Below are positions 28,063 through 28,752 of a stretch of 64,000 nucleotides of DNA, one piece after another. The DNA comes from a virus. The notes under the pieces were generated by a model. It had not been told where the DNA came from. It saw only the letters and a list, made by a program, of their open reading frames with translations, and ran no database searches. Location: the IMG/VR virus record IMGVR_UViG_3300046542_000332, positions 20,720 through 84,719 of that record. The stretch is one strand, 5' to 3'. Numbering within the stretch: position 1 is the stretch's first letter; each line of letters starts with the position of its first letter. The position numbers and the translations under genes are program-made.

Positions 28063-28752
28063 TTACCGCCCGCTTTGCGCGCCTTCCAGGGTGCAAACGT
28101 CCCACGGCCCGCCCTGGTCCTTGCTCAGCTTTCCGCGTGTGGCGGCCGCATACCCCGACTCACGCCAAGGCCTATTGGTGAGCACCATGCCGTTGCCCGG
28201 ATCGGTCATATGGGCGCACGCCATGTAGAAACACGCATCAGGGATGTCGTGGGCTTCCTCCATCAGCCAGCAAACGTGCTCACCGTAGAAGCCGGCCAGC
28301 GCCTCGGGCATTCTCGCGTCGGCACAGAGGAACCGGATTTTCGCGCCCATGGACTGGCGCCTCAGGTGGATCTGGTGAGCGTCAAGGCTGATATAGGCGC
28401 GCAACCAGCTATGGGAGCCCTCGACCATCCAAGTCAGCAAGCGCACGTATTGCTGCTTACGTGCACGGCCGCCTCCATGAGGAATGACCACCAGGGTTTG
28501 GGATTCGGGGCGACACAGCAGGCGCCAGATCGCGATAGGCGCCATCGGGCTGATGCCATCCCATCCATGCAGGTCGATGTCGGTGGCGATGGACACACGG
28601 CAGCCAGGGAGCGAGGCAAGGCAGTAGACGTGGGCGAGTGCTGGCGTTACCTCCATGCCGAAGACATCAGCGGCAAACGCGCACAGGTCGTTGGCGTAAC
28701 GCTCGATGAACGCTGGCCACCGCGCATCCTCATAGAGCGGTGTCAGGCTCAT
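28063..28752 (-). CDS. Degenerate paralogue of the terminase ATPase domain (Walker A lost)
   Basis: Colinear similarity to PacB residues ~12-232: RWPAF..RYA, GCRVS.A, IA.W.LLC, PE.LAG..G, EA..IPD..F, TDP.N, SK.QGG.W. Confidence 0.85.
   Translation of the reverse strand: MSLTPLYEDARWPAFIERYANDLCAFAADVFGMEVTPALAHVYCLASLPGCRVSIATDIDLHGWDGISPMAPIAIWRLLCRPESQTLVVIPHGGGRARKQQYVRLLTWMVEGSHSWLRAYISLDAHQIHLRRQSMGAKIRFLCADARMPEALAGFYGEHVCWLMEEAHDIPDACFYMACAHMTDPGNGMVLTNRPWRESGYAAATRGKLSKDQGGPWDVCTLEGAQSGR

Follow-up and report, generated by a model that had tools for sequence, protein, structure and literature searches.

The window analysed in this work (64,000 nucleotides, positions 20,720 to 84,719 of IMGVR_UViG_3300046542_000332) comes from an IMG/VR virus record of 84.7 kb with an estimated completeness of 98%. 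Relatives of this element include circular Pseudomonas plasmids of 81-95 kb, among them the P. fluorescens DR133 plasmid (CP048608.1) and P. putida pKF715C, which points to a P1-like phage-plasmid lineage. The packaging operon is located on the minus strand, in the gene order pacA, orf206, orf150, orf196, psi, a 70-nt spacer and pacB (Table 1). The identity of pacB follows from its matches to PHROG 5902 and phrog_2 (terminase large subunit) and to pacB of P1, D6 and RCS47. Searches of Pfam, NCBIfam and PDB sequences gave no match for psi, PacB, orf196, orf150 or orf206, and in the protein atlas orf196 was found in unnamed clusters only. Several unnamed PHROG families of very different length (186-685 aa) have C-termini that match the last ~80 aa of orf196, which suggests that this part of the protein is a mobile small domain widespread in phages.

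Table 1. Features of the packaging operon and its surroundings, with positions in the window.
Feature	Position	Strand	Description
pacA	30898..31983	minus	361-aa small terminase subunit, first gene of the operon; Pfam Terminase_2 2e-12, phrog_51
orf206	29994..30614	minus	family with longer forms (426-431 aa) in relatives
orf150	29339..29791	minus	variable small operon gene; present only in the closest relatives
orf196	28749..29339	minus	196 aa; immediately precedes psi in every case, or pacB in elements without psi
ATGA overlap	28749..28752	minus	orf196 stop / psi start
psi	28063..28752	minus	229-aa predicted ATP-blind paralog of the PacB terminase ATPase domain; ATG start, TAA stop
psi codons 56-66	28555..28587	minus	ATDIDLHGWDG, in place of the PacB P-loop ASGHGTGKT
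psi codons 162-166	28255..28269	minus	WLMEE, remnant of the Walker B strand
Hairpin	28003..28034	minus	9 pairs, GC-rich, with T-run; between psi stop and pacB start; terminator-like
pacB	26427..27992	minus	521-aa PacB-type large terminase; Walker A/B, coupling motif and nuclease domain intact
NdpA/YejK-family gene	23864-24880	minus	nucleoid-associated protein, Pfam NA37 2e-84; few genes downstream of pacB; also in pKF715C

Besides the overlap of the orf196 stop codon with the psi start codon, a GGAGG motif was revealed at 28760-28764, 7 nt upstream of the psi start. Judging by these signals, psi is in all probability translationally coupled to orf196, as an earlier, sequence-only reading of this locus had proposed. 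At its other end psi is separated from pacB by the hairpin, and with such a terminator-like structure in between, the co-expression of psi with pacB is not certain. A hairpin was found in this spacer in each of the 13 loci that were read, including those of relatives without psi, and the stem sequences differ from locus to locus yet pair. In all relatives (spacers L003-L019) it is located 20-30 nt before the pacB start, and a conserved GTAnAGTG lies just upstream. The RNAalifold consensus for the spacer is weak owing to a poor alignment, so the conservation of the hairpin rests on sequence-by-sequence reading. Together with its T-run, the hairpin may serve as an attenuator or terminator, or else as an element that influences the processing or stability of the pacB RNA.

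It should be mentioned that many diverged psi proteins end with a short Q-[ST]-P/x tail (AQTPA, VQTPT, LAQTPR, QSGR), and that the C-termini of orf196 proteins resemble these tails (AQSTR, AQGSAR). The shared tail may represent a short linear motif; alternatively, it may reflect an element at the nucleotide level, immediately ahead of the hairpin of pacB. We also considered the similarity of the psi tail to the orf196 tail of psi-less relatives (AQSxR) as the scar of a fusion; it is no proof of one, since AQSxR is general in orf196 tails.

To the PacB protein of the same element (521 aa), psi is related over almost its entire length: its residues 9-227 align with residues 15-237 of PacB at 33% identity (BLASTP, E 1e-36), and a similarity of this level lies far beyond chance. 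In addition, psi matches phrog_5902 (2e-17) and, in tblastn, the pacB genes of P1, D6, RCS47 and others, with 23-27% identity to the PacB proteins of P1, D6 and RCS47. The end-to-end alignment described in the sequence-only reading was thus recovered, and every matching block it had listed was found (RWPAFIERYA/RWPAFVARYA, GCRVSIA/GCRVSVA, IAIWRLLC/IALWHLLC, PEALAGFYG/PENLAGTHG, EEAHDIPD/DEASGIPD, TDPGN/TDPRN and SKDQGGPW/SKRQGGAW). The same reading, which gave no strand, had noted that the Walker A motif SGHGTGKT is replaced by TDIDLHGWD, that the DE of Walker B has become EE and that the nuclease domain is missing. All this was borne out, with TDIDLHGWDG in the place of SGHGTGKT; its list of lost motifs was, however, incomplete, because the adenine-binding Q motif and the coupling motif, which it did not mention, are lost as well.

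None of the five features of a functional terminase that were checked (Walker A, Q motif, Walker B with the catalytic Glu, coupling motif, nuclease domain) is present in psi. In two alignments with PacB ATPase domains, Walker A or any GK[ST] was missing in 19/19 and in 35/35 rows of the psi family, whereas Walker A and the catalytic residues were invariant in an alignment of 27 PacB-type terminases. In Walker B, ADEA of PacB is changed to MEEA; the position of the Asp is occupied by Glu in the close family, and that of the catalytic Glu is variable across the whole family (E/D/N/S/G/A). Q49/Q50 of PacB are invariant or nearly so, while psi has PALAH at this place and the Q motif is lost. The coupling (C) motif SQPT of PacB corresponds to TNRP in psi, to TNKP in its closest homologs and to variable sequences elsewhere. 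Finally, psi ends at residue 229, opposite position ~237 of PacB, where the nuclease part would begin, so that the RNase H-like nuclease domain is absent from it; no other nuclease-like match was found within the window. Having lost the Q motif, the P-loop, the catalytic Glu, the coupling motif and the nuclease domain, psi should be unable to bind or hydrolyse ATP or to cut DNA in the manner of a terminase. We therefore regard it, on its motif content, as a non-catalytic paralog of the ATPase domain of its own PacB and not as a functional terminase.

The features that psi shares with its own PacB and with PacB of P1, P7 and D6, to which it is homologous over the whole ATPase domain, are the N-terminal DxRWPAFxxRYA helices, the PExLAG loop, the hydrophobic strands of the sheet and the same fold. 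These common residues may stabilise the fold or may represent an inherited interface. Unlike psi, which is half as long, the PacB proteins are full-length, possess the nuclease and the motifs, evolve more slowly and are not optional. The psi protein of the window is acidic (pI 6.3 versus 9.4 for the basic PacB ATPase domain); net charge was nevertheless dropped as a functional clue, since the family medians are -0.5 and +1.5 and the paired values overlap.

The AF2 model of psi is compact and confident (pLDDT 88), and its top Foldseek matches are the terminase ATPase domains of P74-26, Sf6, D6E, HK97 and T4. By structure prediction psi thus belongs to the terminase-type ASCE fold. A single complex prediction of psi with full-length PacB, made without controls, yielded no answer (score 0.00) and is neutral with respect to binding.

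Since all catalytic motifs of psi have gone and the nuclease half is missing, and since some relatives have no psi at all, the gene might be viewed as a decaying pseudogene or a functionless remnant of a duplication. Its evolution argues strongly against this. In the protein database we found 14 homologs of 228-240 aa, a conserved length, with identity levels from 95% down to 40%. The psi frame was intact in all 11 related loci (11/11), in each of which the gene is located directly between orf196 and pacB. Its dN/dS, calculated by the Nei-Gojobori method for pairs with dS below 1, was 0.11-0.31, with bootstrap upper bounds not exceeding 0.48, while the PacB ATPase domain gave 0.00-0.07 for the same genome pairs. 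Comparison of these values indicates that psi is under purifying selection, approximately 10 times more relaxed than that on PacB. Accordingly, the psi protein evolves ~10 times faster than PacB; for example, the window and its relative L008 share 98% identity in PacB and 80% in psi. Even so, 50 positions are invariant among 15 psi homologs ranging down to 40% identity, and homologs of the family can be followed down to 25-30% identity. The GC3 of psi (0.76) is similar to that of the neighbouring genes. Intact frames together with low dN/dS refute decay, which, in view also of the invariant positions, the persistence of the family to 25% identity and the confident compact fold, we consider extremely improbable. 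Here, too, the sequence-only reading proved correct: it had noted that psi contains no stops or frameshifts, had proposed selection on the fold and had named a terminase-like predicted fold as the point to check.

As for its distribution, psi was found in 14 of the 16 elements with a PacB that shares at least 68% identity with that of the window, always in the slot between orf196 and pacB, and was absent from all sampled lineages with PacB 38-59% identical. The two exceptions, L016 and L019, are full-size relatives (82.7-82.8 kb) with PacB proteins 89% and 97% identical to that of the window. In both of them the spacer and hairpin that in the window are located behind psi come directly after orf196. 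On the PacB tree L016 nests within the psi-bearing group; the PacB of L019, which carries an insert, was left off the tree and was placed by its 97% identity to the PacB of the window. These data point to clean secondary losses of psi. Because two close relatives lost it cleanly, psi is optional and dispensable, and packaging as such does not depend on it.

To outline the breadth of the family, 1.84 billion cluster representatives were searched exhaustively without a profile. This search gave 141 matches, more than 40 of which were short, full-length and Walker-A-less. In a scan of viral contigs a single psi protein used as the query returned no matches, while an alignment query worked; two further alignment scans returned mostly real PacB genes. 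On the maximum-likelihood tree at least 43 psi clusters are united in a single clade (SH-aLRT 92) that lies outside every PacB-type terminase sampled, which implies that the duplication is old. Thus, psi originated when the 5' half of pacB was duplicated long ago.

On the same tree, two more lineages devoid of Walker A are located within clades of terminases. One of them is a clade of four members (P0065, P0068, P0090 and P0121) among P1/D6-type terminases; the 444-aa protein P0073, which was not included in the tree, is assigned to this clade on the basis of its sequence (45% identity to P0068). The AU test rejected the hypothesis that all dead copies share one origin (p 0.011), with the group named after the tree had been seen. 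Judging from these phylogenetic data, dead terminase ATPases appear to have arisen independently at least twice. Similarly to psi, members of the second clade are derived from PacB, have degenerate Walker A and B motifs, lack the nuclease and occur together with a real PacB in the same phage records of ~57-86 kb. They differ from psi in their independent origin, in their location (~8 kb from the terminase and not adjacent to it) and in extending to the linker; P0073 differs also in being fused to a different C-terminal domain. This second family was observed in P1/D6-like elements with a GC content of 50% (L021-L025), where its proteins are 252-266 aa long, besides the 444-aa form. In one such record the dead copy is located at G001:C1:29900-30661 and the real terminase at G001:C1:38598-40073.

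Inactive copies of the other half of the terminase were revealed in the same operon family. In five relatives the orf206-family protein has a length of 426-431 aa (L006:5192-6472, L009:5133-6425, L010:5173-6459, L011:5178-6473 and L013:5173-6468) and includes a domain that shares 30-37% identity with the PacB nuclease. All five have another residue in place of the first catalytic Asp (VRVA for VDVA) and have lost the GRD motif. A stand-alone nuclease copy (44% identical, with VVVA) is located just downstream of pacB in another relative, L014:9554-10219. The orf206 of the window does not contain the nuclease-like domain and consists of the flanking parts only. The presence of both terminase halves as inactive paralogs in one operon family points to the recruitment of a duplicated terminase and, at the level of sequence, suggests that both halves have been recruited as non-enzymatic parts.

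What psi does can be approached from its fixed slot in the packaging operon, which is kept over deep divergence, from its coupling to orf196 and from the dead nuclease companion in relatives. For these reasons we favour the view that psi is an optional, binding-only protein that assists or modulates the PacA/PacB packaging enzyme, a view to which we give an even chance of being right. Such a protein would act purely by binding, without enzymology of its own. It could occupy an interface of PacA, PacB or orf196 inherited from the ATPase domain, and in this way would tune the initiation or the timing of pac cleavage and packaging. It should be taken into account that the patchy presence and fast divergence of psi are also expected of a gene involved in conflict, either in anti-defence or in competition between elements.

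A closely related possibility is that psi, together with orf196, is an obligate-like third subunit of the pacase holoenzyme that might donate an interface or an arginine to the active PacB. This would have precedents in other ASCE assemblies and ring ATPases, in which inactive paralogs serving as partner subunits are well known. The translational coupling to orf196, the constant adjacency to pacB and the basic residues that often follow the second strand (GRARK, RRR) agree with such a role. The candidate arginine, however, is not conserved across the psi family, and a subunit of this kind would hardly be lost cleanly in two full-size relatives or be absent from P1, D6 and the other PacB lineages. 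We consider it decidedly unlikely.

In the context of competition, psi could be an inter-element weapon: a dominant-negative fragment that poisons the packaging motor of co-infecting related phages or sequesters the small terminase of satellites that hijack PacB, its own enzyme being tolerant. A terminase-derived fold without activity is well suited to this, as are the patchy presence among close relatives and the fast divergence of psi beside a nearly frozen PacB (80% versus 98% identity between the window and L008). Against it, neither self-immunity nor a target is in evidence, and PacB is so highly conserved among the relatives, with dN/dS values of 0.02-0.07, that the phage's own enzyme would be hit together with any foreign PacB that psi poisoned. 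Moreover, the nuclease domain and the C-terminal arm, reportedly discussed as possible portal contacts in the paper on the D6E structure, are both missing from psi. This explanation is, in our opinion, very unlikely.

The modulator proposed above has also to be weighed against a role in anti-defence, in which psi, as a terminase look-alike, would protect PacB from Avs1-3, Upx or another sensor, either as a sink that captures the sensor but leaves it inactive or as a shield of PacB. The sequence-only reading had suggested a decoy of this kind or, alternatively, a dominant-negative regulator. The retention of the terminase ATPase fold with all enzymology lost fits this idea, as do the probable production of psi together with the terminase from the same operon, its optional character with losses in close relatives, its ~10-fold faster protein evolution than that of PacB and the independent emergence of dead copies at least twice (AU p 0.011). 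In addition, the literature leaves Ksap1, Ksap2 and vs.8 as possible anti-defence proteins (PMC13601566). The known mechanisms of recognition, however, speak against it. SeAvs3 recognises terminase active-site residues and the bound ATP, and recognition by EcAvs2 depends on a bridging ATP with bonds to the ATP of the terminase and its Mg shell (PMC13601566). These cues are missing from psi: according to the motif alignment it has neither the P-loop nor the Q motif, and hence not the active-site residues with bound ATP that mark a ligand of Avs2 or Avs3. Furthermore, binding of the target activates Avs by tetramerisation, so that binding of psi should trigger Avs rather than block it, and Ksap1, Ksap2 and T4 vs.8 are indeed activators of Avs2 (PMC11564622, PMC13601566). 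A fixed slot in a late packaging operon, kept over deep divergence (psi proteins 25-30% identical), would also be unusual for such cargo. Published work thus weighs against a simple decoy, and the position in the operon fits a role in packaging at least as well; we consider anti-defence unlikely. From its motif content, psi may nevertheless be a terminase fold that remains unseen by ATP-reading sensors.

The nearest described analog of psi is T4 vs.8, which is likewise a separate phage gene that encodes a terminase-ATPase-like domain only and is present alongside the real terminase (PMC13601566). The Walker A and B motifs are conserved in vs.8 (PMC13601566) but lost in psi, and the two belong to different lineages, gp17-type and PacB-type, respectively; they were compared by description only. 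Ksap1 and Ksap2, which trigger KpAvs2, resemble psi in being small and lineage-restricted and have a terminase-ATPase-like secondary structure (PMC11564622, PMC13601566). What such small terminase-like proteins do for phages has been called an open question, with anti-defence mentioned as a possibility (PMC13601566). One more protein of this kind, A0A1L2CV01 (235 aa) from the Rak2-like jumbo Pectobacterium phage CBB, shows a half-length terminase-ATPase fold beside a full terminase, and its comparison with the psi model gave TM values of 0.65/0.63. It differs from psi in its terminase lineage and host range, and we found no paper on it.

Few viral machines have been studied as thoroughly as terminases, which are now also recognised as prime targets of the sensors of bacterial immunity. 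We know of no catalytically dead terminase paralog with an assigned role, and no paper was found on the psi family, on dead or truncated terminase paralogs or on terminase pseudoenzymes. The family has no Pfam or NCBIfam model and is lumped together with PacB in PHROG 5902, and its members are therefore easily mis-called as terminases. It can be hypothesized, although we regard this as doubtful, that phages have repeatedly invented copies of the terminase motor domain that are blind to ATP and devoid of the nuclease, with at least two origins in PacB-type phages, and that these copies make up an unrecognised class of terminase partners. Such a partner would be either a regulatory third subunit, accompanied by a dead nuclease in relatives, or a fold mimic invisible to Avs2/Avs3 that manipulates terminase-directed immunity or competitors. 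In any case, psi provides a testable handle on whether pac-type terminases have optional regulatory subunits, and it bears on what the small terminase-like proteins vs.8, Ksap1 and Ksap2 do for phages. Cultivable hosts of its relatives exist, as in the case of the P. fluorescens DR133 plasmid and P. putida pKF715C.

Many PacB-type terminases contain an intein-sized insert of ~140-340 aa exactly inside the Walker A motif (GHG|C...HN|TGKT), in part with homing-endonuclease-like segments. Such inserts were observed in L007:8757-11048 and L019:7215-9452 and in P0027, P0037, P0042, P0048, P0055, P0061, P0074 and P0116, and the plasmid homolog H18 is annotated as a Hint-domain homing endonuclease. 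No correlation was seen between the presence of this insert and that of psi.
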